The notes: a model not told the origin generated them from the sequence alone. Counted from the stretch's first letter, positions 2,677-22,622 are shown. The stretch: DNA of 32,000 bases from Lentimicrobium sp. (GCA_034005265.1 JAVEVB010000034.1:1-32000); one strand, 5' to 3'. Program-made: numbers and translations.

Positions 2677-2726
2677 AACACGGATCTCGTCCGAGGCAGA
2701 GACAAGGTAACACTGATTTGACGGAT

Positions 2727-2757
2727 AATCAATTACTAATCACTGATTACCAATCAT
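2727..2757 (+). repeat. Degenerate remnant of the AATCACN heptamer family
   Basis: The sequence aatcaattactaatcactgattaccaatcat lies just 3' of the epimerase and just before the drop in G+C. Confidence 0.5.
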
Positions 2758-2800
2758 AGAACACAGATCACCTCGACCCATTTTACTGTAATTCAACAAA

Positions 2801-4330: not shown

Positions 4331-4352
4331 TTCAGCCCAATAAAACAATAAC

Positions 4353-5480: not shown

Positions 5481-6357
5481 ACATATTTATTTTAGCATTG
5501 TAATACCGCTCTTTAATAAGGGTAAAAGTATAAGTAGTACGATAAATTCAGTTTTAAATCAAACCTATAGTGATTTTGAATTAATTCTTGTAAACGATGG
5601 CTCAACGGATAATAGTGTAAATATCGTAGAAAGCTGCGATGACAAACGCATTCGATTAATACACCAAGAGAATAAAGGTGTTTCAGCGGCACGAAATAGA
5701 GGTATTCAAGAAGCTAAAAATGAGTGGATAGCTTTTTTAGATGCTGATGATCAATGGGACAATACATATTTAGAAAAAATGCAACAATTAATAATTGATT
5801 TTCCTCAAGCTTCCTTTTTAGGTTGTCAATTTGCACAAAAAGAAAGAGATAATGTCAGATTAGTCAATGGAGTTCATCAAGTTAGGGGTTATATTGAGAA
5901 TTATTTCCAGTTTGCGATTATAGCTCCTCTTGTACATTCATCTGCGGTAATTGTAAAAAAATCTTGTTTTGATGTTGTTGGCATATTTAATTCAAAATTT
6001 TCAAGGGGCGAAGATCTTGATATGTGGAATAGATTAGCAAAGAATTTCACCTTAGCATTTGAACCAACTTTACTAAGTTATTATATTCAAGATTCAGATA
6101 ATAGAGCATGTAAAAATATTCCTTCATTAGAAAAATTCTATTTAGCGCCTAATTTATTCAGACTCCCAAAATATGAGCAAAAGTATATGATTATACTTCT
6201 AAAGGGAGTCTTGTCTGAGTTGTTCTCTTCAAAACATTATTTGACTTTTATAAGGCTTAGCTTAAAAAATCACCTTTATTCGATAATTGCTTTTAAAGAT
6301 ATTATTCTTAGCAGGTTTACAAGAAAAATTATGACACCTGATAAACATCTGGTATAA
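5470..6357 (+). CDS. Family 2 glycosyltransferase
   Basis: FSIVIPLFNKGKSISSTINSVLNQTYSDFELILVNDGSTDNS and the FLDADDQW (DxD) motif are present. The ATG at 5470 overlaps the upstream stop by 11 nt. Confidence 0.85.
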   Translation: MEAKHIYFSIVIPLFNKGKSISSTINSVLNQTYSDFELILVNDGSTDNSVNIVESCDDKRIRLIHQENKGVSAARNRGIQEAKNEWIAFLDADDQWDNTYLEKMQQLIIDFPQASFLGCQFAQKERDNVRLVNGVHQVRGYIENYFQFAIIAPLVHSSAVIVKKSCFDVVGIFNSKFSRGEDLDMWNRLAKNFTLAFEPTLLSYYIQDSDNRACKNIPSLEKFYLAPNLFRLPKYEQKYMIILLKGVLSELFSSKHYLTFIRLSLKNHLYSIIAFKDIILSRFTRKIMTPDKHLV

Positions 6358-6501
6358 CAAACTAAGGATATTTACTGTTTATAGAAATTATTAATGATGT
6401 TTTTAAAGTATCTATAGTGAAGAATATTAAACAATGTCCAATTAAAATAAATGAAAAATTTCACTAAACTTGTTGGCGATAAATATTTTAAATAAAAGAA
6501 G

Positions 6502-7830
6502 ATGGATTTTTTAAAAATTGAGACTTTTTTTGACATTAATAATAATGAAGACAGGACGATTGAAGTTCTATCAGCGGTTTATCAAAATATTACTGTGTTA
6601 AAAGAAAAAGTTCGAAAAATCGGGGAAGGGATTCTAGATAACGAAAATATTATTAAAGGTAAAAAAATATTATTAAAACCCAACTGGGTCACACATGATC
6701 GTAAACCTGATGACGAATGGTCCTTACGAACACATGATGCTGTAATATTAGCCTTAGTAGAAATTCTAATTGAGCAAAACCCAGCAAGTATCATTATTGG
6801 AGATGCTCCGATTCAAGGGTGTGACTGGAATAAAATGTTAAGTAAAAATTTTATAAACGATATTGAGGTATTAAAAGATAAATATAAAATCCCAATTGCT
6901 ATTAAAGATTTCCGACGCGTTACATTTAACCCCGTCCTAAATAATCCAATAAAAGATAGAAGGCCTTTGACTGATTATGTAATTTTTGATCTTGGTACAA
7001 ATAGTTTTCTTGATCCAATTAGCACTGAAAATAACATCTTCAGAGTTACCAACTATGATCCTGATCGTTTAGCCGAATCGCATAGGAAAGGAATTCATAA
7101 ATATTGTATAACAAAAGAATTATTTGAAGCCGATGTTGTTATTTCATTGCCTAAAGTAAAAACCCACCAGAAGACAGGTATAACTTGTGCTTTAAAAAAC
7201 ATTGTTGGCGTAAATGGTGATAAAGATTATCTCCCGCATCATCGCATAGGTGGAACTGGGTTTGGAGGAGATTGTTATCCCGGTAAAAATATTTTCAGGC
7301 TTTGGTCGGAGTACATTCTAGATATTGCAAACAGGCGCCAGGGAAGTGTATTTTATAAATTTTTTACATACTCTGCAGCAATTCTATGGAAACTGACCAA
7401 TCCTCAAAAAGAACATCATTTAGCTGCAGGCTGGCATGGAAATGATACAACCTGGCGAATGGTGTTAGATTTAAATAAAATCTCCATTTATGGCAAAGCA
7501 GATGGTACAATTTCTGACACTCCTCAAAGAAATTTATATAGTCTATGTGATGGGATAATTGGTGGCCAGGGCAATGGCCCTTTGGAACCTGAACCTCTGC
7601 CATTAGGTATTTTAAGCTTTACAAATCACAGCGGACTGAACGATATATGTATGGCAATTTTAATGGGATTTGATCATAAGAAAATAGCACTTCTAAGAAA
7701 TCAAAAGATTGAGTTCTCAAAAGGAGATTTTCCAATTAGCCTTAACGGCCATAGAATAACATTTGAAATGTTATCAAAATATGCAGTTGAAACCGTTCCT
7801 CCTCCGGGTTGGATAAATCATTTAAAATAA
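6502..7830 (+). CDS. DUF362 domain-containing protein
   Basis: KKILLKPNWV and SLPKVKTHQKTGITCALKNIVG match the DUF362 pattern as I remember it. Confidence 0.75.
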   Translation: MDFLKIETFFDINNNEDRTIEVLSAVYQNITVLKEKVRKIGEGILDNENIIKGKKILLKPNWVTHDRKPDDEWSLRTHDAVILALVEILIEQNPASIIIGDAPIQGCDWNKMLSKNFINDIEVLKDKYKIPIAIKDFRRVTFNPVLNNPIKDRRPLTDYVIFDLGTNSFLDPISTENNIFRVTNYDPDRLAESHRKGIHKYCITKELFEADVVISLPKVKTHQKTGITCALKNIVGVNGDKDYLPHHRIGGTGFGGDCYPGKNIFRLWSEYILDIANRRQGSVFYKFFTYSAAILWKLTNPQKEHHLAAGWHGNDTTWRMVLDLNKISIYGKADGTISDTPQRNLYSLCDGIIGGQGNGPLEPEPLPLGILSFTNHSGLNDICMAILMGFDHKKIALLRNQKIEFSKGDFPISLNGHRITFEMLSKYAVETVPPPGWINHLK

Positions 7831-7833
7831 ATT

Positions 7834-8844
7834 ATGATTGCAATCCATAATAAAAAAAATTCTTTCAGTGAATTGTGGATAGATTATTGTTCTAAAAATA
7901 ATATTCCCTATAAAACAGTTAACTGTTATCAATCCAATATTATATCTCAATTGAGTGATTGTGATGCATTAATGTGGCATCATCATCATGGTGATTACAA
8001 AGATAATATTTTAGCAAAACAACTTTTATTTTCGCTACAGCATGCTGGAGTAGTGGTTTTCCCGGATTTTAATACAAACTGGCATTTTGATGATAAAGTC
8101 GGTCAAAAGTATTTGTTTGAATCGATTGGTGCACCCTCAGTTCCGTCATTTGTATTTTACGATAAAGAAGATGCATTCTCATGGGTTAGAACGACTAATT
8201 ATCCAAAAGTCTTTAAATTAAGAGGTGGAGCTGGTAGTGCAAATGTTAAACTTGTAAATAATCAAACCCAAGCCATATTATTGGTAAGAAAAGCATTTGG
8301 GAAAGGATTCCCTGCATTCGACCGATGGTCATATTGTAAGGATCGTTGTGCGAAATTTTTAAATGGCAGTGATACACTGGTCGGTGCCCTAAAAGGAATA
8401 GGAAGATTGTTTGTGCCAGTAAAAAACATTCATCTGTTACACCACGAAAAGGGATATATTTACTTTCAGGATTTCATCCCTAATAATGAATCAGATACCC
8501 GTGTAATTATTATTGGCGGAAAAGCATTTGCGATAAAGAGATTGGTCCGCAAGAATGATTTTAGAGCGTCTGGTAGTGGTTCGATTATTCATAAAAATGA
8601 TGAGATAGATATTCGATGTGTAAAGATTGCTTTTGAAACATCTGAAAAATTAAAATCACAATGCATTGCATATGACTTTATATTTAATCACGAAAATAGT
8701 CCTCTCATTGTAGAAATTAGTTATGGATTTTCACCTGCTGGCTATTCAAATTGTCCAGGATATTGGGATAGAAATCTTCTTTGGCATGAAGGCGCGTTTA
8801 ATCCATATGGTTGGATGGTTGAAATGATATTAAGCAATAAATAA
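7834..8844 (+). CDS. ATP-grasp fold protein (putative carboxylate-amine ligase)
   Basis: YPKVFKLRGGAGSANVKLV, YFQDFIPNNESDTRVIIIGGKAFAIKR and FRASGSGS fit the RimK-like ATP-grasp layout. The start lies 4 nt after the DUF362 stop. Confidence 0.75.
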   Translation: MIAIHNKKNSFSELWIDYCSKNNIPYKTVNCYQSNIISQLSDCDALMWHHHHGDYKDNILAKQLLFSLQHAGVVVFPDFNTNWHFDDKVGQKYLFESIGAPSVPSFVFYDKEDAFSWVRTTNYPKVFKLRGGAGSANVKLVNNQTQAILLVRKAFGKGFPAFDRWSYCKDRCAKFLNGSDTLVGALKGIGRLFVPVKNIHLLHHEKGYIYFQDFIPNNESDTRVIIIGGKAFAIKRLVRKNDFRASGSGSIIHKNDEIDIRCVKIAFETSEKLKSQCIAYDFIFNHENSPLIVEISYGFSPAGYSNCPGYWDRNLLWHEGAFNPYGWMVEMILSNK

Positions 8845-8851
8845 AGAATTA

Positions 8852-10039
8852 ATGAAGCTATCCAAAATTCAACGCATTGCGCTCTACATCTTTTTATTTT
8901 CCATCAATTTTGAAGTATGGGCTCCATCTGGTATAGCTCTTTCTACTTCAAAAATTACAGGACTAATCTATTTTGCTACTATTCTTCCGAATTATAAATA
9001 TTTTTTCAAAGCAGGGTACATCAGACATTTATTAACGCCCATGTGGTTATTGTTTGGACTACTAACCGTTGTTAGTCTTATCAATATAAATTCAGTGAGC
9101 TACTCATTCTTCGATTTTTCATTATTTCAAAACATGTTGCTATTTTGGTTATTGCTTAATCATGAAAGAAAAGACCCTGGCATATTGGCTAAAGGTATGC
9201 TGGCTTTCGCCATGGGTTCTATTGTTCTTGCTGCTTTGTATTACTTTAAAATAGGCATTGCATATGAAGGAGGCCGGGTAACCATATTTGGAGACAATGC
9301 CAATACTGTTGGCATAAGAATGAGCGTATCAATCTTTATTTTAGCATTATATATTTTAAAAAACAGTATAGGAATGGGGAAATTTCGCTACTTACTTATT
9401 GTTCCCATATTTCCTATGGTTATGCTACTGGCTGAAACAGGTTCCAGGGTAGCATTTATCGCTTTTGTTCTACAATTTATTGTGATAGTTTTATTCAATA
9501 AATCAGGACGATTCAGTTTGAAATTATTTTTAATAATTGCCGGCTCAATAATTGGATATTTCACCTGGACCTATTTTATGGAAATAGATGTTTTACGAAT
9601 CCGACTTACCCAATCATTACAAGACCGTGACCTTGCAGGACGAGACCTCATATGGTCCAAGGTAATCCAAGTAATAAAGAGTTCTCCAATTTTTGGTGTA
9701 GGAAAGACTGGTTATGCCTCATACATGAGTGATGCTTACGGTTCAGTTTCCAGTCCACACAATGTAATCCTTGAGATATTAGCTTACACCGGCTTAATTG
9801 GCTTGTATTTATATTTAAATTTCTTGTTTAAGATTATTCGCATTGCCTATGCAAGCTTTAAAATTAACAAGGATTTATTGCCATTGCTTTTATTTATCCC
9901 ATTTTTGGGTTTAATGTTTAGCGGTCAACTTTTGGTAGTTAAGATTGGATGGGTTATTCTTGCCTTTGCTGGATCAAAAATATTTTCAACACATCCTATG
10001 TATATAAAAAGAAATGAAAATCCTCTGCGTAATAGATAG
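8852..10039 (+). CDS. wzy: O-antigen polymerase / O-antigen ligase-like membrane protein (Wzy family)
   Basis: There are about 10 predicted TM segments and a periplasmic loop with SPHNVILEILAYTGLIG, typical of the Wzy_C family. Confidence 0.75.
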   Translation: MKLSKIQRIALYIFLFSINFEVWAPSGIALSTSKITGLIYFATILPNYKYFFKAGYIRHLLTPMWLLFGLLTVVSLININSVSYSFFDFSLFQNMLLFWLLLNHERKDPGILAKGMLAFAMGSIVLAALYYFKIGIAYEGGRVTIFGDNANTVGIRMSVSIFILALYILKNSIGMGKFRYLLIVPIFPMVMLLAETGSRVAFIAFVLQFIVIVLFNKSGRFSLKLFLIIAGSIIGYFTWTYFMEIDVLRIRLTQSLQDRDLAGRDLIWSKVIQVIKSSPIFGVGKTGYASYMSDAYGSVSSPHNVILEILAYTGLIGLYLYLNFLFKIIRIAYASFKINKDLLPLLLFIPFLGLMFSGQLLVVKIGWVILAFAGSKIFSTHPMYIKRNENPLRNR

Positions 10040-11099
10040 TCTAGGTTCAGGTGGTGCACAGCGGCAATTGGTGAACCTTGCAGTTGGCTTCAAAGAAAAA
10101 GGGCACGATGTTTCTTTTTTGGTTTACCATAGCATCAACTTTTTTAAAAGTTCATTGGTTGAACATGAGATACCTGTTAAAGAAATCATAGAGCCCAACT
10201 ACCTGAAACGTTTGTTTAAAATGCGACGGTTTATTCGCAGGGGTAAATATGATTCTGTATTTTCATTCCTTGAAGCATCCAATTTTATATGCGAAATCTC
10301 GGGATTACCTTGGCGCAAATGGAAATTGGTTGTAGGGGAACGGAGTGCAAATCCGGCAATCTTAAAAACTTTTAAACTTCGTGCATTTCGCTGGTTTCAT
10401 GTTTTTGCAGATTATATAGTAGCCAATTCGTACGAAAACCTCAAAATAGTGCAAAAAATTAACCCTTTGCTTTCTTCCAGGAAGTGTCATGTTATTTATA
10501 ATATTGTTGACTTTGAAAAGTGGCAAATCATTTCACAATCCAAACACTATGAAAACAGTGAATTCAGAATAGTCGTAGCAGCAAGTCACCGTTATTTGAA
10601 AAACCTGAGTGGATTGGTTGAAGCAGTGAATTTACTTCCACCACAGAAAAAAAACCGATTAAGAATTGATTGGTATGGGAACAATACACACGATACCTCA
10701 AGAATAGAAGTACAAAAGAAAATTAAAGAATATAAGTTAAAAGACGTTTTCACCTTCTTAGAACCTATTCTGTCGATACAACAAAAAATGCAAGAGGCCG
10801 ATGCAGTAGGTTTGTTCAGTTTTTATGAAGGCTTGCCAAATGTTATATGTGAGGCAATGGCTATAGGTAAACCTATCATTGCAACGGCAGTCTCTGATAT
10901 TCCGCTTTTAATATCCAATAAAAATTTGTTGTCAAATCCCCATGATCCATCTTCTATTTCTCAGAGTTTAAAATATTTATTAACTATGAAAAGCGACGAA
11001 TTAATTAATGAAGGAAGAATCAATCAAGAAATCGCTTTACATATTTTTAATAAGGAAACTATATGCGAATTATACTTAAGCCTCCTAACACATGTCTAA
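10014..11099 (+). CDS. Family 4 (GT-B) glycosyltransferase
   Basis: MKILCVIDSLGSGGAQRQLVNLA and the EGLPNVICEAMAIGKPIIAT (E-x7-E region) are present. It overlaps wzy by 26 nt. Confidence 0.85.
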   Translation: MKILCVIDSLGSGGAQRQLVNLAVGFKEKGHDVSFLVYHSINFFKSSLVEHEIPVKEIIEPNYLKRLFKMRRFIRRGKYDSVFSFLEASNFICEISGLPWRKWKLVVGERSANPAILKTFKLRAFRWFHVFADYIVANSYENLKIVQKINPLLSSRKCHVIYNIVDFEKWQIISQSKHYENSEFRIVVAASHRYLKNLSGLVEAVNLLPPQKKNRLRIDWYGNNTHDTSRIEVQKKIKEYKLKDVFTFLEPILSIQQKMQEADAVGLFSFYEGLPNVICEAMAIGKPIIATAVSDIPLLISNKNLLSNPHDPSSISQSLKYLLTMKSDELINEGRINQEIALHIFNKETICELYLSLLTHV

Positions 11100-11577
11100 C
11101 ATCAGAGTAAGATTATATAAAGGCAATTTCAAGGGATTGTTCTTCATCTGTTTTTTTAGGATTTCTAACTTCTTTACAGTGAATATGTTTAGAAGAATAA
11201 TAGGACTCCCTATACGATTATTTTATAAGCTATTTGTTAATTGGCTGTTGGGAATTGATATTTCAGACACAACCCAAATTGGTAAAAACCTTATTGTCTG
11301 GCATGGTATAGGCCTTATAGTACACCCTAAGACAATAATTGGGGATAACGTTGTACTGAGACACAACACAACAATAGGTAGTTCTAAGCATAATGGAGGT
11401 GCTCCGATACTTTGTAATGGTTGTGATATAGGCTCAAATAGTGTTATTCTTGGTGAAATAATTGTGGGAGAAAATTCTAAAATTGGAGCTGGATCTGTTG
11501 TAACTAAAAGTGTGCCACCCTATTCAGTTGTTGTCGGAAATCCTGGTAAAGTTATTAAATATTTGAGAAATGACTAA
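11092..11577 (+). CDS. Hexapeptide-repeat (LbH) O-acetyltransferase, serine-acetyltransferase-like
   Basis: Left-handed beta-helix repeats are seen (IGDNVVLRHNTTIG, IGSNSVILGEIIVGENSKIGAGSVV). It has an ATGTCTAA start/stop overlap with the upstream gene. Confidence 0.8.
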   Translation: MSNIRVRLYKGNFKGLFFICFFRISNFFTVNMFRRIIGLPIRLFYKLFVNWLLGIDISDTTQIGKNLIVWHGIGLIVHPKTIIGDNVVLRHNTTIGSSKHNGGAPILCNGCDIGSNSVILGEIIVGENSKIGAGSVVTKSVPPYSVVVGNPGKVIKYLRND

Positions 11578-12670
11578 GGTATTATTAGTAGCACCACTAA
11601 ATGACAAAGGAAATGGTGGCATTCTATCATGGACAAGGAGATTTGTCAAGACCTTCCATTCAGAAGATTTTGAAATCGTTCCAATAAAGTCATCTTCGAG
11701 AAGTAGCAATAATGCTATCAATCCGTTATTTATTAAACGGCTTATTAATGGGTTGTTAGATTTGAGAGATACTCGTAAAAATTTGATTAATGCCATAAAA
11801 CAAGATGAAATCCATATTATGCACATAACTACCAGTGGCGGTTTAGGCACCTTTAGGGATTATGTGCTTGCAAAAGTATGCAAGAGAAAGGGTATAAGAA
11901 CTATTATGCACTGCCATTACGGTAGTATGACTGAGAGCCTTAAGAGAAATGATATTTTGGGGTATTTTCTTTCTAGAACTTTAAAATTGTATGACCACAT
12001 TTGGGTTTTGGATATGAGAACATTAACAACCTTAAAATCAATTCATGAGCTAAGGGACAAAGCCTTTCTGACTCCTAATTCTATTGAAGTTCACAAGGAA
12101 TTTGACACTAATTTAAAAAGTTTTACAAAAATAGCTTTTATTGGAAATCTTGTCCCATCCAAAGGCTTATTTGAATTAGTTGAGGCTATAACAAAAGTAA
12201 AGTACAATATTGAATTAACTATAATCGGACCAGGCACAAAAAAAGTAATAGATAGAATTAAAGAAATTGCAGGAGAGTATATTAATAAGCGTATTAAAAT
12301 TATGGGGGTTATGCCCAATAATGAAGCAGTAAGTTTTTTGAATTCTGTTGATATACTAGCTCTGCCAACTTATTATCCAGCTGAAGCTTTCCCAATGTCA
12401 ATTCTTGAAGCAATGAGTTTAGGAAAGTTGGTAATTTCAACACCTCGTGCGGCAATTCAAGATATGCTTACTTTATTGAATGGTGATACATGTGGAATTC
12501 TAGTCCGAGAAAAATCAGTTGATGACATTGTTATTGCAATTGAATGGTGTATCACAAACCCAAGGGATGCCAATAATATTTGTGAAAAAGCATACAAGAA
12601 AGTATATGAAACCTATCGAACAGATATTGTATATAAACTTTATGAAGAAAATTATAGAAAGTTAATTTAA
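11570..12670 (+). CDS. Family 4 glycosyltransferase
   Basis: The PAEAFPMSILEAMSLGKLVISTP motif is present. It has an ATGACTAA start/stop overlap with the upstream gene. Confidence 0.8.
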   Translation: MTKVLLVAPLNDKGNGGILSWTRRFVKTFHSEDFEIVPIKSSSRSSNNAINPLFIKRLINGLLDLRDTRKNLINAIKQDEIHIMHITTSGGLGTFRDYVLAKVCKRKGIRTIMHCHYGSMTESLKRNDILGYFLSRTLKLYDHIWVLDMRTLTTLKSIHELRDKAFLTPNSIEVHKEFDTNLKSFTKIAFIGNLVPSKGLFELVEAITKVKYNIELTIIGPGTKKVIDRIKEIAGEYINKRIKIMGVMPNNEAVSFLNSVDILALPTYYPAEAFPMSILEAMSLGKLVISTPRAAIQDMLTLLNGDTCGILVREKSVDDIVIAIEWCITNPRDANNICEKAYKKVYETYRTDIVYKLYEENYRKLI

Positions 12671-12701
12671 AATGGCATGATGCTTTTCAGTATGCAAAAC
12701 C

Positions 12702-12709
12702 TATATTTG
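12702..12709 (+). promoter_or_regulatory. Candidate Bacteroidota -7 promoter element (TATATTTG = TAnnTTTG)
   Basis: It is an exact match to TAnnTTTG in the 107-bp gap where G+C content switches. Confidence 0.25.
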
Positions 12710-12756
12710 TTTGTCGTATCGGCCATACTATTCTATGAATATATATACTTGAATAT

Positions 12757-12764
12757 TATATTTG
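12757..12764 (+). promoter_or_regulatory. Candidate Bacteroidota -7 promoter element (TATATTTG)
   Basis: This second exact TAnnTTTG match ends 13 nt before the ATG at 12778. Confidence 0.3.
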
Positions 12765-12777
12765 TAATTGACTAAAC

Positions 12778-13986
12778 ATGAACATCCTCTTTCTCACCAT
12801 CTCCAATATCACCGACATCAATGAGCGCGGCATCTATACCGATCTGATGCGGCAGTTCAGGGATAAGGGGCATAAGGTGTATATTGTATCACCCACAGAG
12901 CGCAGGTATAAGCAACCCACAGCCCTGCGGCAGCAGGATGGAATCAGCCTGCTTAAAGTTAAGACGCTGAACCTGCAAAAGACCCATGTTGTAGAAAAGG
13001 GAATGGGTACCATTTTGTTGGAAAATAAATATTTAGCAGCAATAAAGAAGAATTTAAGTAAAGCAAAATTTGATTTGATTTTATATTCTACTCCGCCCAT
13101 TACCTTTGAGAAAGTAATCAGGTATATAAAGTCCCGGGACCATGCCTTTGCCTACCTGCTACTAAAAGATATTTTCCCTCAAAACGCGGTTGACCTGAAT
13201 ATGCTCAGTAAAGGCGGCCTTTTGCACCGTTATTTCCGGAAAAAGGAAAAAGCACTCTATGCCGCTTCGGATATTATCGGCTGTATGTCGCCTGCCAATG
13301 TGGAATATGTATGCAGGCACAATGCTGAAGTTATGCCTTCGAAAGTTGAAGTATGCCCCAACAGCATTACCCTTTCCAATGAAGCCGTTCTCACAGCAAC
13401 AGAACGCTTGTCCATAAGGTCGAAACACCAGCTGCCACCGGAAGATACCCTCTTTATTTATGGCGGCAATCTGGGCAAACCACAGGGTTTAGGCTTCCTG
13501 ATTGAGGTGCTGGAAGCGAACAAAAACCGAAAGGGAGCATATTTTGTTGTGGTGGGTTCGGGCACTGAGTTTCCCATGCTTCAAAAGTGGTTTGAAACAA
13601 ACAACCCAGCCAATGCCTTATTGTTAAAAGGCCTGCCCAAAGCCGAATACGATGATTTGGTCAAAGCCTGTGATGTAGGATTAATTTTACTCGACAGCAA
13701 ATTTACCATTCCCAATTACCCTTCCAGGCTACTTTCATATCTCGAAAACCGAATGCCGGTAATAGCAGCCACCGATATCAATACAGATATTGGGGCGATA
13801 GCAGAAGAAAATGGGTATGGGCTTAAATGCCTTTCAGGTGATATTAAAGCAATGAAAAAACATGTTCAGTTTTGTTGCGAAAATAAAGGGAGGATTGAAG
13901 AAATGGGGCAAAACGGGTATGATTTTCTTATAACAAATTATACGGTGCAGCATTCGTATGATATTATAATAAAGCATTTTATGTAG
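12778..13986 (+). CDS. Family 4 glycosyltransferase, WbuB-like (possible L-FucNAc-type transferase)
   Basis: MNILFLTISNITDINERGIYTDLMRQFRDKGHKVYIVSP resembles, from memory, GT4 enzymes that commonly follow fnlC. This is unverified. Confidence 0.8.
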   Translation: MNILFLTISNITDINERGIYTDLMRQFRDKGHKVYIVSPTERRYKQPTALRQQDGISLLKVKTLNLQKTHVVEKGMGTILLENKYLAAIKKNLSKAKFDLILYSTPPITFEKVIRYIKSRDHAFAYLLLKDIFPQNAVDLNMLSKGGLLHRYFRKKEKALYAASDIIGCMSPANVEYVCRHNAEVMPSKVEVCPNSITLSNEAVLTATERLSIRSKHQLPPEDTLFIYGGNLGKPQGLGFLIEVLEANKNRKGAYFVVVGSGTEFPMLQKWFETNNPANALLLKGLPKAEYDDLVKACDVGLILLDSKFTIPNYPSRLLSYLENRMPVIAATDINTDIGAIAEENGYGLKCLSGDIKAMKKHVQFCCENKGRIEEMGQNGYDFLITNYTVQHSYDIIIKHFM

Positions 13987-14990: not shown

Positions 14991-15593
14991 ATGTACACAT
15001 CCTTCTTAAAGCCAGCTATTGATCTATCATTAAGCCTGATTGCTTTACTGCTACTTTCACCCGTATTGGTCATAATTACCCTTTTACTTTTTTTCGCCAA
15101 CACCGGTCGCCCGTTCTTTTCCCAAACCCGCCCCGGAAAAAACGCCCGGCTATTTAAGGTCATCAAGTTTAAAACCATGAACGACCACCGCGATGCTGCC
15201 GGCAAGCTACTGCCCGATGCGCAACGCCTCACCCCTGTTGGAAAGTTTGTGCGTAAAACCTCATTGGATGAACTACCGCAACTGCTGAATGTGCTGAAGG
15301 GTGATATGAGCCTGATAGGGCCACGGCCTTTACTGGTGGAGTACCTGCCACTTTACAACGAAAAACAGGCGCGCCGCCATGAAGTAAAACCCGGCATCAC
15401 CGGCTGGGCACAGGTGAATGGCCGCAATGCCATCAGCTGGGAACAAAAGTTTGAATACGATGTTTGGTATGTGGATCATTGCACGTTTTCAATGGATATT
15501 AAAATCCTTTTAAAGACCATTGAAAAGGTGTTTAAAGGAGAAGGAATCAACCAACAGGGGCAGGCAACAGCGGAAGCATTTAAAGGAAATTAA
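14991..15593 (+). CDS. Undecaprenyl-phosphate sugar phosphotransferase, small monotopic PglC/EpsL type
   Basis: The 200-aa protein has one N-terminal hydrophobic helix plus FKVIKFKTM, DELPQLLNVLKGDMSLIGPRP and KPGITGWAQVNGRN (Bac_transf signature). Confidence 0.9.
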   Translation: MYTSFLKPAIDLSLSLIALLLLSPVLVIITLLLFFANTGRPFFSQTRPGKNARLFKVIKFKTMNDHRDAAGKLLPDAQRLTPVGKFVRKTSLDELPQLLNVLKGDMSLIGPRPLLVEYLPLYNEKQARRHEVKPGITGWAQVNGRNAISWEQKFEYDVWYVDHCTFSMDIKILLKTIEKVFKGEGINQQGQATAEAFKGN

Positions 15594-15596
15594 TTG

Positions 15597-16214
15597 ATGA
15601 AAACAAACGACAAAATATGGATTTACGGAGCCAGCGGACATGGTAAAGTTATTTTAGATTGTCTCATGGCAGCCGATATCAAGGTGAGTGGCTTTATTGA
15701 TGATAAGTCAAAAACAATAATTGTTGGCTATCCGGTTACAAACGATTCATCCATTGATCCAATCAAGGACCAGGTAATTATTGGTATTGGCAACAATAAA
15801 ACCAGAAAACGCCTGTCGGAAATAAACAATTTCCACTACCTGAAAGTAATACATCCATCAGCACTACTGTCCAATTATGCAGAGATCGGTGAAGGTTCTG
15901 TGGTATTTCACCATTGCGTAATTCAAACGGGAACAACAATTGGCAAACATTGTATCATCAACACCTCAGCTTCTATAGATCACGATTGTATTGTAGAAGA
16001 TTTTGCGCACGTTTCACCCAAGGTAACCCTATGCGGCAATGTTAAGGTTGGTGAAGGAACGCATGTTGGTGCGGGGGCAGTTATCATTCCAGGTATTAAG
16101 ATCGGGAAATGGGCTACCATTGGCGCCGGGGCAGTAATCATTGAAGATGTACCGGATTATGCGGTTGTTGTAGGCAATCCCGGAAGAATCATCAAACTGA
16201 ACGATCCTTTGTAA
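15597..16214 (+). CDS. PglD/NeuD/EpsM-family sugar N-acetyltransferase
   Basis: An N-terminal Rossmann-like IWIYGASGHGKVILDCL segment is followed by a C-terminal hexapeptide helix ending VVVGNPGRII. Confidence 0.85.
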   Translation: MKTNDKIWIYGASGHGKVILDCLMAADIKVSGFIDDKSKTIIVGYPVTNDSSIDPIKDQVIIGIGNNKTRKRLSEINNFHYLKVIHPSALLSNYAEIGEGSVVFHHCVIQTGTTIGKHCIINTSASIDHDCIVEDFAHVSPKVTLCGNVKVGEGTHVGAGAVIIPGIKIGKWATIGAGAVIIEDVPDYAVVVGNPGRIIKLNDPL

Positions 16215-16222: not shown

Positions 16223-16864
16223 ATGGGTAGGATGAACAACAAACGCAAGTATCTGATCGCGGGCCTCTTGTCCGCATTTTTTATTTTTGGCATACTGTCG
16301 TTGCGGCAGGCGGGCAACTGGCTGGTTGTTTCCGATAAACCCATTCACGCCGATGCCCTGCTGGTGCTGATGGGTGGTGTGGAGGAACGTATTCCCCAGG
16401 CCATTGATTTGTACAAGGCGGGCTATGCGCCCCTGCTTCTTTTCCCGGACGATTATGAAGAAAACCCGCCCCTTATCCTGCCCAATGGCACAAAACTATC
16501 CAACGATGCCGCCAAAAGCAGGCACCTCAGCCGGCAGTATGGCGTACCCGACTCAGCCATCCGCATTGTTCAGGGGCCGGCATTGAATACACAGGCCGAA
16601 GCAGAGCTTATGGCAGGTTACCTTGAAGGTCATCCGGAAACGGATACCCTTATCCTGGTCAGTTCCTCCTACCATATGCGGAGGGCAAGCTTCATTTTCC
16701 GGAATGAATTTGCCTCAAAAGGGCTTGAAATTACCCTGATCAGCGTACCTTCGCGCTACAGCACGTTTAAGCCGGATAAATGGTGGAGATCAGGCACTTC
16801 ACGCAACATTGTTTTCTACGAATATTTAAAAATGGCTTATAACTTACTGTGGGACAGGTGGTGA
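16223..16864 (+). CDS. DUF218 / YdcF (ElyC-SanA-like) family membrane-anchored protein
   Basis: It has an N-terminal TM segment, LLVLMGG...AIDLYKAGYAP and LILVSSSYHMRRA. Confidence 0.75.
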   Translation: MGRMNNKRKYLIAGLLSAFFIFGILSLRQAGNWLVVSDKPIHADALLVLMGGVEERIPQAIDLYKAGYAPLLLFPDDYEENPPLILPNGTKLSNDAAKSRHLSRQYGVPDSAIRIVQGPALNTQAEAELMAGYLEGHPETDTLILVSSSYHMRRASFIFRNEFASKGLEITLISVPSRYSTFKPDKWWRSGTSRNIVFYEYLKMAYNLLWDRW

Positions 16865-17170: not shown

Positions 17171-17180
17171 ACCCAACCCC

Positions 17181-17534: not shown

Positions 17535-17565
17535 CTTATTATTTTAAAAAACGAGAAGAACAGCT

Positions 17566-17713
17566 CCAAAGACCAAAAGCCCAACAAATGTTAGTTTATA
17601 ATCTAATCTCAGTGCTTATAACACCAAAGACCAAAGACCCAACCACAACAAATGTTAGTTCTAACTTCCCATCATAAAACAACAACACCCAAAGACTAAA
17701 GACCAAAGACTAA
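17566..17713 (+). repeat. AAAGACC blocks (17566-17580, 17624-17640, 17688-17713) enclosing copy 2 of the 53-bp direct repeat (17641-17693)
   Basis: This comes from direct reading. A partial third copy of the direct-repeat core (caacaaatgttagtt) lies at about 17582-17596. Confidence 0.9.
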
Positions 17714-17776
17714 TTTGTGCAGAAATAGGCGGTCAAAGAAATTAGCGTAAATTCGCCGTTACAGCAAAAACAGAAA

Positions 17777-18808
17777 ATGCCCTTCATTACTTCACGTGAT
17801 CCTCTTTGGAAAAAATTACTGGCAAACACGCCCCACGATGTTTACCACCTTCCGGGATATGCCACCATTGAAGCAGGTTTGCTGAATGGAGAAGCCATTG
17901 CCTGGGTTCACCGCGAAGAGGGAAACACCTTCCTTATACCGCTGGTGAGCAGAACCATCAATGGCGGGCAGGAGTTCCGCGATCTGGTAAGCCCTTATGG
18001 TTATTCCGGCATGTTGACACTCAACAGCATACATGCCGATGAAGCCTCACATGCCTTATCGTTGTTCAACAAAGAAGCTGCCGCCAATGGCTATGTGAGC
18101 AGTTTCCTGCGACTGAACCCCCTGCTCAACTCATGGCAGTTGCCACAAACGGAAGCCTGGCGGCAGTGGTTTCACGGAGGCACGGTATCGGTAAATCTGA
18201 GTCAGCCGGTGGAGGAAATCCGGGACAGCTTTCACCAGAACCACCGCCGCAACCTGCAACGGCTGCATACCTCAGGATATACCGCATCCATCAACCAATG
18301 GGCTGAACTGCCCCATTTTATGAAGGCGTACCGCCAGACCATGCAGCGGCGACAAGCCCACCCCTATTATTTTTTCCCGGACAGTTATTTTCAGGCACTT
18401 CACCAGCTGCTTGGTGCGCGACTGGTATTCATCAGCGTAATGGATGCCGACGGTGAATTTGCTGCCGGCGGCTTGTTCACCCTGTTTGACAAAGTGATGC
18501 AGTACCATTTGGGAGCAACAACCAATAAACACCTGTACTTCAGCCCATCAAAGCTGATGATGGAAGCCGCCATAGAATATGGCATCGCCAACGGAGCCGA
18601 CCTGCTGCATCTGGGCGGAGGTTTGGGTGGCAGCACCACCGATGGCCTGTTCAGGTTTAAAAAAGGCTTCGCCGAAAAATACCATCCCTATACCAGCTTA
18701 CGGTTCATTCATTTGCCGGCGGTTTATGAAAAACTTAAACTCTCGCTCGGCAAAGGCTACAACCGAAACACCTATTTCCCTGAATACCGGATAATTGTGG
18801 AGGAGTGA
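17777..18808 (+). CDS. FemAB-like / GNAT (Acetyltransf_6-type) acyl- or aminoacyl-transferase
   Basis: The size, SPYGYSGML, YHLGAT and LLHLGGGLGGSTTDGLFRFKKGF resemble FemAB-related proteins found in EPS loci. This is motif-level recognition only. Confidence 0.6.
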   Translation: MPFITSRDPLWKKLLANTPHDVYHLPGYATIEAGLLNGEAIAWVHREEGNTFLIPLVSRTINGGQEFRDLVSPYGYSGMLTLNSIHADEASHALSLFNKEAAANGYVSSFLRLNPLLNSWQLPQTEAWRQWFHGGTVSVNLSQPVEEIRDSFHQNHRRNLQRLHTSGYTASINQWAELPHFMKAYRQTMQRRQAHPYYFFPDSYFQALHQLLGARLVFISVMDADGEFAAGGLFTLFDKVMQYHLGATTNKHLYFSPSKLMMEAAIEYGIANGADLLHLGGGLGGSTTDGLFRFKKGFAEKYHPYTSLRFIHLPAVYEKLKLSLGKGYNRNTYFPEYRIIVEE

Positions 18809-18884
18809 AGGTGAATGGAACACGGATTTCACGGATTGCACTATCGCTGGCGCGCACAAGCACATCCCGGGGAAAGCGGTTCCC

Positions 18885-19028
18885 TTCGCGTAAATTCGCG
18901 TAATTAGCGGTTAAAAAAGCCTTAGCACTTGAAAACAATTAGCGTAAATCAGCGTAATTAGCGGTTAAAAAAACCTTCGCGGAAATGAGTAGTTGAAAAT
19001 AATTCGCGTAATTCGCGGTTAAATAACA
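18885..19028 (+). repeat. About 2.5 copies of a 55-64-nt unit built on TT(A/C)GCGTAAAT..GCGTAATTAGCGGTTAAAAAA
   Basis: This comes from direct reading. A 12-nt exact core (attagcgtaaat) also occurs at 17741-17752, upstream of the FemAB-like gene. Confidence 0.8.
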
Positions 19029-19052
19029 TCCTCTTCAACATACACCTGCTGA

Positions 19053-19634
19053 ATGAAACAAAAAATTCAAAAATTCCTGAAACTAAGGGAAGACAAGCGT
19101 TACCGGCCAATATTCGACGTTGGCATCTTTGCCCTGTTGCTGTTTTTTGTCCACTACACCTACATTTGGTGGTCTTCGGCAGGCTTTCCGCCGGTAAAGT
19201 CATTGGTTGACCAGCTGTTTATCTCGGCTTCAGCCATCCTTTTTGATCAAAGCGTGTGGGTAGTGCAGCATCTTTTTGGCATGGACATCACCACCCAGGG
19301 GCAAAACATACTTTTCGTCACCAGCGAAGGCACAACGGGCTATGTAGGCGTAGAACCGGGCTGCACCAGCCTCAAGCAGTGGGTACACTGGATCGTACTG
19401 ATGCTGTTGTTCCCCGGGCCATGGAAACACAAACTCTGGTACATTCCTATGGGGGTAGTAGTCATCCACTTCGTCAACCTGATAAGAATAACCGGACTGG
19501 TAGTCACCACCACAGCCTGGCCTCAATCTTTTGAATTCTTCCACAATTACATCTTCAAAACCTTCTTTTATTTTATGATATTTTTAATGTGGGTGGTTTG
19601 GGTAGAGTATTTTGCAAGTAAGGAGCGGCTTTAG
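19053..19634 (+). CDS. Exosortase/archaeosortase-family protein (short, XrtF-like size)
   Basis: The 193-aa polytopic protein has VEPGC(104)TSL, NLIR(145)I, FFH(164)NYIF and a C-terminal FLMWVVWVEYF. The order and spacing match exosortase Cys/Arg/His motifs as I recall them. Confidence 0.7.
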   Translation: MKQKIQKFLKLREDKRYRPIFDVGIFALLLFFVHYTYIWWSSAGFPPVKSLVDQLFISASAILFDQSVWVVQHLFGMDITTQGQNILFVTSEGTTGYVGVEPGCTSLKQWVHWIVLMLLFPGPWKHKLWYIPMGVVVIHFVNLIRITGLVVTTTAWPQSFEFFHNYIFKTFFYFMIFLMWVVWVEYFASKERL

Positions 19635-19668
19635 CGACTTAAGCGACTTAAGCGAACGTAGCGATTCA
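19633..19668 (+). repeat. Four tandem 9-mers AGCGACTTA / AGCGACTTA / AGCGAACGT / AGCGATTCA
   Basis: Direct reading shows the array begins inside the stop codon of the exosortase-like gene. Confidence 0.7.
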
Positions 19669-19726
19669 ATACAAGACCATAAACGTCTATCTTTGTAACA
19701 GAGAGGATTGTATAAAGAACCAGGGC

Positions 19727-19776
19727 TTGAATCCTGAAAGTCCCGAGAGGAGGTACGACGATTCGGGACTGAATCC
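19727..19776 (+). repeat. Single copy of the 42-nt hairpin unit TGAATCCTGAAAGTCCCGAGAGGAGGYACGACGATTCGGGAY
   Basis: The stem is AGTCCCGA/TCGGGACT. The same unit is tandemly repeated at 21275-21400. Confidence 0.85.
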
Positions 19777-19794
19777 ATTAATTGCAGTGATTCG

Positions 19795-21443: not shown

Positions 21444-22622
21444 ATGACAAATCCTAAAATCTGGCTCTCCTCCCCTCACATGGGCGGAACCGAACAAAAA
21501 TACATTACTGAAGCATTTACACACAACTGGGTAGCCCCATTGGGTCCCAATGTCAATGGCTTTGAGCAGGATTTGCAAACCTTCACCGGCTCACCACATG
21601 CAGCGGCCTTGAGTTCAGGCACGGCAGCACTTCACCTGGCATTGATACTGCTTGATGTAAAGCCGGGCGATTTCGTCATCTGTCAGAGCTTTACCTTTTC
21701 GGCATCGGCCAACCCCATTGCCTACCAGGGCGCCATTCCTGTATTTGTTGACAGCGAACCCGACACCTGGAACATGAGTCCTGCACACCTGGAAACCGCC
21801 ATCAAGGCCTGCATGAGCGGGGAAATGAGGTACAAAGGACAAAAAATGCCCGCGGCAAAGCCTAAAGCCATTGTACCGGTGCATCTTTACGGGATGCCGG
21901 CAAAAATGGAAGAAATCGTGAAAATGGCCAACACCTACGACATACCGGTGGTAGAAGATGCCGCGGAAGCCCTGGGCTCCGGCATCAATGGGCAGGAATG
22001 CGGCACTTTCGGGAAGTTTGGCGTGCTCAGTTTCAATGGCAACAAAATCATTACCACCAGTGGAGGCGGCGCTTTACTGTCGGAAGACGGAGAAGCCATT
22101 GCCAAATCGCGCTTTCTGGCCACCCAGGCCCGCGACCAGGCGCCCCATTACCAGCACAGCCACATTGGGTACAACTACCGCATGAGCAACATTGTGGCCG
22201 GTATTGGCCGAGGACAAATGGAAGTGCTGAAAGAGCGGATTGCTGCACGCCGGTCCAATTTTGAAAGATACGCCGCCTGGTTCGGCAAACTGAAAACCAA
22301 AGGATACAACATAAAACTGCAGCCGGAGCCGCAGGGTTACCTTGCCAACCGCTGGCTCACCGCCATCACCATCAATCCTGATGAAAACAAAGGCATCACC
22401 CGCGAAACCCTCAGGCTGGCCTTTGAAGCCGAAAACATAGAAACACGCCCCTTATGGAAACCCATGCACCTGCAACCTGTCTTTGAGGGTTGCCCCTACT
22501 TTGGTGATGGCACCTCCGAAAAACTGTTTGAAGATGGATTGTGCCTGCCATCGGGTTCCACCTTAACGGAAGCGGATTTTAAGCGGATTTTTGAGGTTTT
22601 GGCGCGGGTTTTCATGCAGTAA
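21444..22622 (+). CDS. DegT/DnrJ/EryC1-family PLP-dependent sugar aminotransferase, PglE/EpsN-like
   Basis: IWLSSPHMGGTEQKYITEAFTHNWVAPLGPNVNGFEQDL closely recalls the EpsN N-terminus. The FNGNKIITTSGGG segment would hold the PLP lysine. Confidence 0.9.
   Translation: MTNPKIWLSSPHMGGTEQKYITEAFTHNWVAPLGPNVNGFEQDLQTFTGSPHAAALSSGTAALHLALILLDVKPGDFVICQSFTFSASANPIAYQGAIPVFVDSEPDTWNMSPAHLETAIKACMSGEMRYKGQKMPAAKPKAIVPVHLYGMPAKMEEIVKMANTYDIPVVEDAAEALGSGINGQECGTFGKFGVLSFNGNKIITTSGGGALLSEDGEAIAKSRFLATQARDQAPHYQHSHIGYNYRMSNIVAGIGRGQMEVLKERIAARRSNFERYAAWFGKLKTKGYNIKLQPEPQGYLANRWLTAITINPDENKGITRETLRLAFEAENIETRPLWKPMHLQPVFEGCPYFGDGTSEKLFEDGLCLPSGSTLTEADFKRIFEVLARVFMQ

Follow-up and report, generated by a model that had tools for sequence, protein, structure and literature searches.

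Characterised members of the exosortase family (XrtA, XrtB and ArtA) process protein C-termini. To our knowledge, it has never been established which nucleophile resolves the exosortase acyl-enzyme, and the link between FemAB-like proteins and exosortases has been noted only as a co-occurrence in large proteobacterial loci. Veith et al. (2020; PMC7468200) speculated that the Fem-like protein of exosortase systems makes an amino-acid-modified sugar acceptor; VimA, which is TIGR03019-like, sets the amino acid (Ser or Gly) on the linking sugar that holds T9SS cargo (PMC7468200). The linking sugar of the Prevotella intermedia T9SS is an N-alanyl-deoxyhexose, the biosynthesis of which was stated to be unknown (PMC11969387). 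Among the short exosortases, XrtF of Flavobacterium johnsoniae (Fjoh_1448) has no known PEP-CTERM-like substrate; xrtF mutants no longer form biofilms or colonise surfaces, and they resemble porU, porZ and DegT mutants in phenotype (PMC10936215). Here, we analyse a 32,000-nucleotide stretch of Lentimicrobium sp. DNA (the window) in which a short exosortase-like gene follows a Fem-like gene directly within a glycan locus, a pair for which a preliminary description had proposed a functional link.

The exosortase-family protein

The gene at 19053..19634 (+ strand, ATG start) encodes a 193-residue membrane protein. It matches the exosortase/archaeosortase signature TIGR04178 with 65.7 bits (cut-off 23, E = 3.6e-18) over residues 99–184, which span all three key residues, and Pfam PF09721 with 32.5 bits (cut-off 25.7), and it covers just the C-terminal positions 113–251 of the 254-position Pfam Exosortase_EpsH model. 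The motifs are V100-E-P-G-C104-T-S-L, N142-L-I-R145-I and F162-F-H164-N-Y-I-F, and C104, R145 and H164 show no variation in an alignment of 32 homologues with 46–82% identity. The N-termini of the Fem-like and exosortase reading frames agree with those of their homologues (MPFI...; MKQKIQKFLKLREDKR...). The preliminary description had recognised Cys104, Arg145 and His164 in a polytopic frame and had suggested profile placement and residue conservation as checks. The motifs lie at these positions, and both checks support the assignment: on profile scores and invariant residues, the protein is to be counted a true member of the exosortase/archaeosortase family with its Cys/Arg/His signature intact.

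Hydrophobic windows are located at residues 20–38, 133–151 and 166–184. The AF2 model (pLDDT 86.6) contains five long helices (18–43, 48–74, 106–119, 124–155 and 157–192), in keeping with the polytopic frame, and a three-stranded sheet at 79–99. The N-terminus is rich in K/R, and the invariant loop FPGPWKHK (120–127) and the C-terminal tail are also basic; segment 75–105 and the loop 156–160 are acidic or neutral. By the positive-inside rule, this charge pattern predicts that C104, R145 and H164 face outward, on the outer side of the inner membrane. A sequence search of the PDB gave no matching chain, and a Foldseek search with the model gave chance-level matches only (rhodopsins and NarI; best E 0.09, TM ≤ 0.27), a result that is uninformative because, as far as we know, no exosortase structure has been solved.

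Among the named subfamily models, XrtX (NF046081) scores best (102.1 bits, below its cut-off of 170) and XrtF (TIGR04128) is next (59.2 bits, below its cut-off of 90). This ranking, and the similar size of the enzymes (the two models are 168 and 174 positions long), could be read to mean that the protein is a plain orthologue of the named XrtX or XrtF system and behaves alike. We consider this highly improbable: the protein lies under both curated cut-offs, the 18 other members and representatives that were scored also fall below them (73–101 bits on XrtX), and the gene has no conserved neighbour resembling the small membrane partner of XrtF. Membership of XrtX, XrtF, XrtH, XrtY, XrtM, XrtG and ArtB/C/E was rejected, as all of the scores are under the cut-offs. 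Since the protein misses the curated cut-off of every named subfamily, its scores assign it to an unnamed clade of short exosortases that is nearest to XrtX. The likeness to XrtF drawn in the preliminary description thus holds for the short size (XrtF model, 174 positions) and not for the nearest named subfamily, which is XrtX; the protein appears to belong to neither. The clade is sizeable, with 45 representatives at E ≤ 1e-30, rising to 508 at E ≤ 1e-10; it occurs in uncultured Bacteroidales and Lentimicrobiaceae and is without a name in the curated models. Two of the related loci (L001 and L002) contain a second, unpaired exosortase paralogue. In the relative P0379 the exosortase is fused to a β-lactamase/PBP-type serine hydrolase domain; the fusion proteins seen in this survey were each observed only once and could result from errors in gene calling.

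The Fem-like transferase and the amino-sugar cassette

The gene directly upstream of the exosortase gene (17777..18808, + strand, ATG start) encodes a 343-residue protein that the preliminary description had called FemAB-like, an identification borne out by matches to PF13480 (41.7 bits, cut-off 22) and PF02388 FemAB (33.5 bits, cut-off 24) and by FemX as the best PDB sequence match (E = 9e-8). FemX is also the top Foldseek match of the AF2 model (pLDDT 92.8) with a TM-score of 0.70 and an E value of 1e-16, followed by Sba18/Sbb17, FemA and the MprF/aminoacyl-PG synthases. In the HMMER alignment, FemX Phe305-Lys306 (4ii9_A chain numbering) aligns with Phe294-Lys295 of the Fem-like protein, and among 34 homologues Lys295 is invariant and Phe294 is at least 90% conserved; we take the catalytic residue of FemX to be Lys305, with a Phe before it. 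The model thus indicates a Fem fold (tandem GNAT) of the aminoacyl-tRNA-dependent transferases, and the protein is predicted to be an N-aminoacyl transferase that uses this donor. It scores 28 bits on TIGR03019 (E = 1e-6, cut-off 260) and is not a member of that family. Homologues of 390–430 residues were considered as fusions and dismissed, their extra length consisting only of low-complexity insertions.

The two genes are separated by a spacer of 244 bp, which is widened by repeats of family D6: a repeat search finds three copies of a ∼42-nucleotide unit, 54 nucleotides apart, at 18885..19034, so that the intergenic repeats of the preliminary description are real. The terminator scan detected no terminator-like site on the + strand of the spacer. 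A σ70 promoter scan gave fewer promoter-like sites than shuffled sequence. These scans carry little weight, since Bacteroidota promoters differ.

The pair is flanked by the split Pgl set that had been described around it, with all genes on the + strand. Upstream lie a PglC-like small polyprenyl-phosphate sugar-phosphate transferase, the predicted initiating enzyme (14991..15593; PF02397, 213 bits; TIGR03025, 251.8 bits), a PglD/NeuD-type amino-sugar N-acetyltransferase (15594..16214; TIGR03570, 221.7 bits, cut-off 160.8; PF17836 PglD_N, 64.9 bits) and a DUF218 (ElyC/YdcF-like) protein (16223..16864; PF02698, 57 bits). Downstream lies a PglE/LegC-like DegT aminotransferase (21444..22622; PF01041, 309.8 bits; TIGR04181, 388.9 bits, below the cut-off of 420), which is predicted to supply the amino group at C4 of a 4-amino-4,6-dideoxy-HexNAc, the presumed acceptor of the Fem-like enzyme. 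No PglF-like gene was found in the window. A PglF-like gene adjoins the pair in L004, L008, L058, L072, L074 and other related loci, a PglC-like gene is near the pair in several relatives and a DUF218 gene lies beside the cassette in a subset of them (L001–L003, L014 and L072). Most loci with sufficient flanking sequence contain a DegT homologue of 57–78% identity close to the pair, and PglD genes, too, occur around it. From these family matches, the pair appears to be embedded in a PglC/PglD/PglE(/PglF) cassette for a 4-amino-4,6-dideoxy-HexNAc (bacillosamine/AAT-type) sugar.

The rest of the glycan locus (1519..13986, + strand) is of the Wzx/Wzy type, as judged from family matches. Its genes encode a WecB epimerase, a Wzx flippase, a pyruvyl transferase, a GT2 glycosyltransferase, DUF362 and ATP-grasp proteins, Wzy, a GT4 glycosyltransferase, a hexapeptide acetyltransferase and two further GT4 enzymes. 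The G+C content of this region is 29–36%, compared with 43–52% in the Pgl/Fem/exosortase block.

Conservation of the gene pair

Of 71 related loci (counted as GTDB-species loci), 20 have a same-strand Fem-like gene as the immediate upstream neighbour of the exosortase gene, and these 20 make up the basal part of the exosortase tree. Among the carriers of the pair are the complete or near-complete genomes OZ223471.1, OY781105.1, BAAFUF010000001.1 and ERZ21878461 contig_20. Starting from homologues of the Fem-like protein, the exosortase gene adjoins in three further contigs, L072 (58% identity), L073 (45%) and L074 (38%), and it is directly downstream in 11 of 11 metagenome loci in which the Fem-like protein is at least 43% identical and at least 600 bp of downstream sequence is present. 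Across 32 paired loci, most intergenic distances are 4–120 bp, and in relatives the two genes overlap or are tens of bases apart. The distance matrices of the two proteins are correlated (r = 0.85; Mantel test, 0/2000). In many lineages of Bacteroidales and Lentimicrobiaceae, the Fem-like and exosortase genes are therefore neighbours that are inherited together, and the proposed link between them gains support from both gene order and covariation.

The association is not uniform. A derived gut/rumen clade (class B; 49 of the 71 loci) has the exosortase gene alone, with Fem-like and sugar genes absent from the surrounding 10 kb and with housekeeping neighbours (a ClC channel, a nitrilase-family hydrolase, TrkA, MnmA, ROK and PGK); the exosortase can thus function, or at any rate be retained, without a Fem gene beside it. 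Fem-like homologues with 39% identity or less retain the DegT/PglC genes and have no exosortase, and a DegT gene lies directly downstream of such distant, exosortase-free Fem-like genes in 27 loci. In L075, where the Fem-like homologue has 34% identity, a missed exosortase in the downstream gap was excluded, as the open reading frame in the gap encodes an ATP-grasp protein. The association of the Fem-like family with the DegT/PglC amino-sugar cassette is broader than that with the exosortase.

The lone exosortases of class B, the exosortase-free Fem-like homologues and the unpaired paralogue of L001/L002 are all in line with adjacency being no more than inherited synteny, with exosortase substrates unrelated to the glycan and a Fem-like enzyme that only decorates the sugar. 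Such a history would have to account for a same-strand Fem → exosortase order that is kept in at least 34 loci while the surroundings are rearranged, often with the genes overlapping or a few bases apart and down to ∼38–45% protein identity. Even the divergent locus L058 has an Acetyltransf_6-domain gene, a fusion of VanZ and Acetyltransf_6, where the Fem-like gene would be. We judge inherited synteny to be distinctly improbable as the whole explanation. Our tentative preference, held with somewhat less than even confidence, is that the Fem-like protein and the exosortase work as a conserved functional pair, first decorating and then using the amino sugar of the Wzx/Wzy glycan.

Candidate substrates, proposed mechanism and relation to known systems

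The exosortase itself is the only open reading frame of the window with a hydrophobic helix and a basic tail at its end, and no substrate with a sorting signal (motif, TM helix and basic tail) recurs in 76 related loci covering 1.25 Mb. The tail scan of these loci matched the exosortases themselves, one 388-residue reading frame in L008, which its position in a polysaccharide locus suggests to be a chain-length-type protein, and two other isolated reading frames. Likewise, no small reading frame is conserved beside the exosortase in the 20 paired loci, in which the Fem-like gene is the sole universally conserved neighbour, and none is present at 18700–20000 of the window. A small reading frame downstream of the exosortase in L001 was discarded as a partner or substrate since it is a fragment of RhuM. 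The 'orphan' status given to the exosortase in the preliminary description accordingly stands for the window and the related loci, in the sense that there is neither a conserved small partner nor a local sorting-signal substrate.

The lack of a protein substrate near the 76 loci would suit an exosortase that acts on the glycan itself, either by cross-linking chains to one another or to another envelope polymer via the amino acid or short peptide installed by the Fem-like enzyme, or by hydrolysing the aminoacyl group. Curated glycosyltransferase partner models exist for short subfamilies such as XrtG and XrtY (TIGR03111 and NF046085), and the serine hydrolase fusion of P0379 points in the same direction, although as a single observation it carries the caveat given above. 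Glycan-directed action is nevertheless quite unlikely in our estimation. It departs from the processing of protein C-termini by XrtA/B and ArtA, and a single amino acid supplies an amine and no scissile peptide bond, so that cross-linking would need a longer peptide.

For the functional pair that we tentatively favour, the following course of events can be proposed. In the cytoplasm, the Fem-like enzyme would move an amino acid from aminoacyl-tRNA onto the amino group of the sugar, which might be a nucleotide sugar or an undecaprenyl-PP-linked sugar, giving a product with a free α-amine. Wzx would then flip the lipid-linked unit to the periplasmic face, where the exosortase would form a thioacyl intermediate with a peptide carbonyl that is resolved by the amine of the aminoacyl sugar, and a protein or peptide would thereby be ligated to the glycan. 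By analogy, we infer that this mechanism would parallel the action of FemXAB and sortase A on lipid II and of VimA and PorU in Porphyromonas. It counts against the mechanism that the amine in question could be capped by the PglD-type acetyltransferase of this cassette. A stronger version, in which the pair is a minimal, self-contained 'glyco-sortase' module with the Fem-like enzyme placing an aminoacyl handle on a bacillosamine-type sugar and the exosortase joining proteins or peptides there, is more doubtful. If true, it would for the first time define an exosortase acceptor in genetic terms, and might represent an inner-membrane pathway of Bacteroidota that supplies, or operates alongside, the PorU-dependent anchoring of surface proteins. 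The chemical hypothesis that an N-aminoacyl-4-amino-4,6-dideoxyhexose is the acceptor is testable, and the Fem-like family is a candidate for making N-aminoacyl deoxy-amino sugars.

Alternatively, the Fem-like enzyme and the Pgl cassette might make the T9SS linking sugar, with PorU as the ligase and the exosortase as an accessory at the inner membrane, where it would mature or quality-control the glycolipid, for example by trimming or editing the aminoacyl group. N-seryl, N-glycyl and N-alanyl linking sugars are PorU acceptors in three Bacteroidota (PMC7468200; PMC11969387), the N-alanyl-deoxyhexose still wants a pathway (PMC11969387) and the phenotype pattern shared by F. johnsoniae xrtF, porU, porZ and DegT mutants (PMC10936215) would fit. 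Proteins with a T9SS C-terminal domain are encoded in these lineages, and the Fem-like gene of L073 is immediately preceded by three Por_Secre_tail genes. L073 is, however, the only locus in which cargo genes adjoin the pair: an HMM built from its three C-terminal domains gave matches that are scattered in the loci, mostly 2–10 kb from class B copies, and a cargo link by proximity was rejected for want of enrichment beside the pair. Moreover, T9SS component genes were not observed in the window, neither a VimE-type deacetylase nor Wbp genes were detected among its scanned reading frames, and a role in linking-sugar synthesis offers no specific chemistry for a Cys/Arg/His enzyme. We regard this alternative as unlikely.

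The two-protein arrangement can be compared with several described systems. With XrtX and XrtF the exosortase shares its short length (models of 168–174 residues) and a common core with the Cys/Arg/His signature, and with XrtF also the phylum Bacteroidota; it differs in scoring below both cut-offs (102 of 170 and 59 of 90 bits) and, from XrtF, in having no XrtF-type partner, its conserved neighbour being a Fem-type transferase in a Pgl-type cassette. Sba18 and Sbb17 (PDB 9wqy, 9wqx and 9wqw), which the PDB describes as aminoacyl-tRNA-dependent peptide synthases and which were crystallised with streptothrisamine, have the Fem fold in common with the Fem-like protein (Foldseek E ∼1e-14, TM 0.65–0.77) and are smaller (∼285 versus 343 residues). 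They are presumably soluble antibiotic-pathway enzymes with, as far as we know, no link to envelope glycans or sortases.

FemX/FemA/FemB and sortase A offer a closer functional likeness, in that an amine built on a lipid-linked precursor by an aminoacyl-tRNA-dependent Fem enzyme serves as the nucleophile for a Cys/His/Arg transpeptidase. The Fem-like protein shares the fold and the aligned FK motif of FemX with a sequence identity of just ∼14%, whereas the fold of sortase A is unrelated to that of the exosortases and its acceptor is the peptidoglycan stem peptide rather than a polysaccharide sugar. In the VimA/PorU system of Porphyromonas gingivalis and Tannerella forsythia, a Fem/GNAT enzyme similarly governs which amino acid is carried by the amino sugar in a surface glycolipid, and a sortase-type cysteine enzyme joins protein C-termini to that amine (PMC7468200). 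The sugar there differs, being a 2,3-diamino uronic acid made by Wbp enzymes and the deacetylase VimE, and the ligase is the outer-membrane PorU as opposed to an inner-membrane exosortase; CE4 deacetylase and Wbp matches were absent among the scanned window reading frames, and VimA was compared by description only.

The XrtA/PEP-CTERM loci of proteobacteria likewise combine an exosortase with a FemAB-superfamily protein in a polysaccharide locus. XrtA enzymes are much longer, as reflected in the 254 positions of the Exosortase_EpsH model, and are accompanied by many PEP-CTERM substrates, and the Fem-like protein described here is far below the TIGR03019 cut-off (28 versus 260 bits) and comes from another phylum. 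In the present locus the genes are directly adjacent, which reduces the association to two neighbouring, co-inherited genes in a small, well-understood amino-sugar cassette.

The short exosortase and its clade

The ORF at 19053–19634 (+ strand) encodes a protein of 193 residues that belongs, almost certainly, to the exosortase/archaeosortase family, as automated annotation already recognises. It scores 65.7 bits against the family signature TIGR04178 (cut-off 23, E = 3.6e-18, residues 99–184) and lies above the gathering score of Pfam Exosortase_EpsH. The Cys, Arg and His on which the preliminary description relied were all found at the positions proposed (Cys104 in VEPGCTSL, Arg145 in NLIRI and His164 in FFHNYIF) and show no variation among 32 aligned homologues with identities down to 46%; the same is true of P-x-CTSLKQW-x-H, FPGPWKHK-x-WYIP-x-G and FK-x-x-FY. 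The exosortase-like assignment is confirmed, and a chance explanation is far exceeded.

The top subfamily model is exosortase X (XrtX; NF046081) with 102 bits, followed by XrtF with 59 bits and, at lower scores, by the remaining named exosortase and archaeosortase models. This ranking might suggest a simple XrtX or XrtF orthologue, a reading that is contradicted by the curated cut-offs of 170 and 90 bits, respectively. Eight relatives from the related loci and ten cluster representatives show the same sub-cut-off behaviour (XrtX scores of 73–101 bits). Among 1.84 billion cluster representatives, exosortase matches numbered 45 at E ≤ 1e-30, 508 at E ≤ 1e-10 and 2187 at E ≤ 0.001; a word-index search returned 787 proteins, nearly all of about 195 residues and named, where named at all, ‘exosortase/archaeosortase family protein’ or ‘hypothetical protein’. 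Since the protein and its relatives miss the cut-offs of the named subfamilies and carry generic names, it is a member of a sizeable, unnamed clade of short exosortases. The 67 loci in GTDB species genomes come nearly all from uncultured Bacteroidales, Lentimicrobiaceae and Candidatus Limimorpha, with one MAG carrying a Chlorobiota label. Two representative homologues are apparent fusions of the short exosortase core, to DUF4922 (P0356, 483 residues in total) and to a beta-lactamase/PBP-type serine hydrolase (P0379, 587 residues in total), which could be real or gene-calling artefacts. A second, deeply divergent paralogue (193 residues, XrtX 73.8 bits) occurs in the related loci L001 (13225–13806) and L002 (8695–9276), about 5 kb downstream from the paired copy; no Fem-like gene accompanies it, and an IVS-protein gene and AAA_14 genes flank it.

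The confident AF2 model built from the alignment (pLDDT 86.6, pTM 0.78) contains helices 18–43, 48–74, 106–119, 124–155 and 157–192 and a three-stranded sheet (79–99) immediately ahead of Cys104. No PDB chain matched by sequence or by fold, so the protein is without a solved relative. Its basic regions are the N-terminus, the invariant PWKHK loop (123–127) and the C-terminal tail; segment 75–105 and the loop near 156–160 are not basic. By the positive-inside rule we infer a cytoplasmic location for the basic parts, which would cluster Cys104, Arg145 and His164 towards the outer side of the inner membrane, the placement to be expected of an enzyme with exported substrates.

The Fem-like neighbour and conservation of the pair

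The neighbouring ORF on the same strand (17777–18808, +) encodes a 343-residue protein, previously described as FemAB-like, which passes both Pfam Acetyltransf_6 and FemAB and scores weakly against the curated FemX and TIGR03019 (PEP-CTERM-FemAB) models (29 and 28 bits). Its best-scoring PDB sequence is that of Weissella viridescens FemX (E = 9e-8). With a very confident AF2 model (pLDDT 92.8), Foldseek again ranked FemX first (E = 1e-16, TM 0.70), then Sba18/Sbb17, described in the PDB as aminoacyl-tRNA-dependent peptide synthases crystallised with streptothrisamine, and then FemA and MprF-type aminoacyl-phosphatidylglycerol synthases; we take all of these to be aminoacyl-tRNA-dependent transferases. 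Phe294-Lys295 (motif FRFKKGF) aligns with the Phe-Lys pair of FemX, whose lysine is presumably the catalytic Lys305, and Lys295 is invariant in 34 homologues. The Fem fold can be assigned with high confidence, and we conclude that the protein is a Fem-fold aminoacyl transferase, with aminoacyl-tRNA as its probable donor.

The association of this exosortase subfamily with a FemAB-like gene was found with either gene as the starting point. Starting from the exosortase, we compared 71 related loci (67 GTDB species loci and four contigs); a Fem-like gene lies directly upstream on the same strand in 20 and is the sole neighbour conserved across all 20. In a neighbour-joining tree the paired loci form the basal branches and the unpaired loci what is essentially a single derived clade, mainly of MAGs from rumen, horse and other gut sources, in which the exosortase gene has conserved housekeeping neighbours (ClC channel, nitrilase-family hydrolase, TrkA, MnmA, ROK kinase and PGK). 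From the Fem side, a profile scan of metagenomes gave 80 loci: the exosortase is directly downstream in all 11 homologues of at least 43% identity with at least 600 bp downstream, and the paired-clade loci lacking it have just 0–91 bp of downstream room. It follows none of the 63 homologues of 30–38% identity, about 40 of which have at least 600 bp downstream. An exosortase adjoins the Fem-like homologues of related loci L072, L073 and L074 (58, 45 and 38% identity), and that of L075 (34%) is without one. Spacing is commonly 4–120 bp; the 244 bp in the window are due to three copies of a repeat. Such adjacency might be synteny without a biochemical link; pairwise distances of the two proteins are correlated (r = 0.85, 27 non-identical pairs, Mantel 0/2000), and functional coupling of the two enzymes is likely.

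Some loci vary the arrangement. In L058 a fusion of a VanZ membrane domain to Acetyltransf_6 (157–1494) replaces the soluble Fem-like protein and is followed by exosortase, DegT and PglF-like genes. In L008 the exosortase gene sits between PglC and PglF, and no Fem gene is recognisable; an ORF about 5.5 kb downstream of its exosortase (16029–17057) matches the MprF-type LPG_synthase_TM (flippase) domain, another aminoacyl-lipid-related domain in this kind of locus. In L073 the two genes are on opposite strands, with the exosortase gene about 360 bp downstream of the Fem-like gene; directly upstream of the latter, and on its strand, are three large Por_Secre_tail (T9SS C-terminal sorting domain) genes (1–6913).

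The amino-sugar cassette and probable insertions

A PglC/PglD/PglE-type set (14991–15593, 15594–16214 and 21444–22622) surrounds the pair. A PglF-type 4,6-dehydratase also accompanies it in relatives; no PglF-like gene was found in the window. Distant Fem-like homologues without an exosortase still have a DegT aminotransferase gene beside them (in 27 loci immediately downstream) and lie near PglC-, PglD- and PglF-like genes. The oldest and broadest tie of the Fem-like family is therefore to the pathway making 4-amino-4,6-dideoxy-HexNAc, which points to the amino group of this sugar as the acceptor of the Fem enzyme; the exosortase was added in one Bacteroidota subclade. The rest of the locus forms a Wzx/Wzy-type glycan cluster encoding WecB, Wzx, a pyruvyl transferase, GT2, DUF362 and ATP-grasp proteins, Wzy, three GT4 enzymes and an acetyltransferase. 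G+C is 29–36% in the Wzx/Wzy/glycosyltransferase part (3000–13000) versus 43–52% in the Pgl/Fem/exosortase block and remainder (14000–32000), which suggests a horizontally exchanged, serotype-specific segment beside a conserved core. At 6502–8844, within this cluster, the genes for a DUF362 protein and for a RimK-like ATP-grasp ligase adjoin each other, a hint that the polysaccharide may undergo a second modification of the amino-acid or carboxylate type.

The pair does lie between the halves of the Pgl set with repeats at its borders, as first described: copies of a 53-nt direct repeat (17641–17693) and of a 42–60-nt repeat (19723–19782). The split looks like the result of insertions, because in L001 DegT follows the exosortase gene with just a RhuM fragment between. 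Such N-terminal RhuM fragments immediately follow the exosortase gene in L001–L003, and a RhuM-family ORF (222–1103) marks the upstream edge of the locus. A ‘23S rRNA intervening-sequence protein’ (IVS, four-helix-bundle) gene (17181–17534, within 16864–17716) lies between 7-nt CCAAAGA/TCTTTGG arrays of inverted orientation and between the copies of the 53-nt repeat (17118–17170 and 17641–17693, 98% identical); it looks like a cassette inserted between the DUF218 and Fem-like genes, and IVS-protein genes occupy other positions in L001, L002, L062 and L070. An AAA_14/DUF4143 ATPase gene (19904–21160) is flanked by the 42–60-nt repeat copies (19723–19782, 21270–21371). A PD-(D/E)XK (PDDEXK_3) ORF (14421–14816) lies between 26-nt x16 (14002–14422) and 27-nt x5 (14824–14960) tandem arrays with a common unit, which create long spurious ORFs on both strands.

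Proposed mechanism and comparison with known systems

A sortase-type logic is the best-supported reading; the specific ligation mechanism is tentative, somewhat short of probable. The Fem-like enzyme would aminoacylate the amino sugar in the cytoplasm, Wzx would flip the lipid-linked unit, and at the periplasmic face the new alpha-amine would resolve a thioacyl intermediate at the exosortase Cys/Arg/His site, joining a peptide carbonyl to the glycan. FemXAB acting with sortase A on lipid II is a precedent. To our knowledge, a short Bacteroidota exosortase has been studied experimentally only once, in F. johnsoniae. There, xrtF and partner mutants phenocopy porU, porZ and a DegT mutant (PMC10936215). 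The second precedent comes from Porphyromonas and Tannerella, in which VimA, a TIGR03019-like protein, is paired with PorU: VimA determines whether the linking sugar bears Ser or Gly, and the authors of that work explicitly speculate that exosortase systems use such an aminoacylated sugar (PMC7468200). The Prevotella intermedia counterpart of this linking sugar is an N-alanyl-deoxyhexose, its biosynthesis being stated as unknown (PMC11969387). These papers may serve as leads for the mechanism and not as tests of it.

Several points hold our estimate of ligation down. The orphan status first proposed stands: no conserved partner protein was found beside the exosortase across the paired loci, and neither the window nor 1.25 Mb of related loci has a recurrent substrate-type ORF that ends in a helix and basic tail; the exosortase might instead act on the glycan itself, by cross-linking or hydrolysis. 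In the derived gut clade the exosortase persists without a nearby Fem gene, and the PglD-type acetyltransferase could cap the amine. The cassette might make a T9SS linking sugar, with an accessory role for the exosortase; T9SS cargo genes adjoin the pair in L073 alone, which also counts against ligation.

The pair would offer a compact, testable system for the question of the exosortase acceptor, though in uncultured hosts and with key chemistry that is inferred. Literature searches returned no paper on the combination of short exosortase, Fem-like gene and Pgl cassette. Proteobacterial PEP-CTERM loci are already known for an association of FemAB with exosortases (TIGR03019). The present locus shares that association, but the TIGR03019 model gives just 28 bits on its Fem-like protein; what we have not found described is an unnamed short-exosortase clade of Bacteroidales and Lentimicrobiaceae that is strictly paired with a Fem-like subfamily of its own kind and set in a Pgl-type amino-sugar cassette, without a partner protein or recognisable sorting signal.
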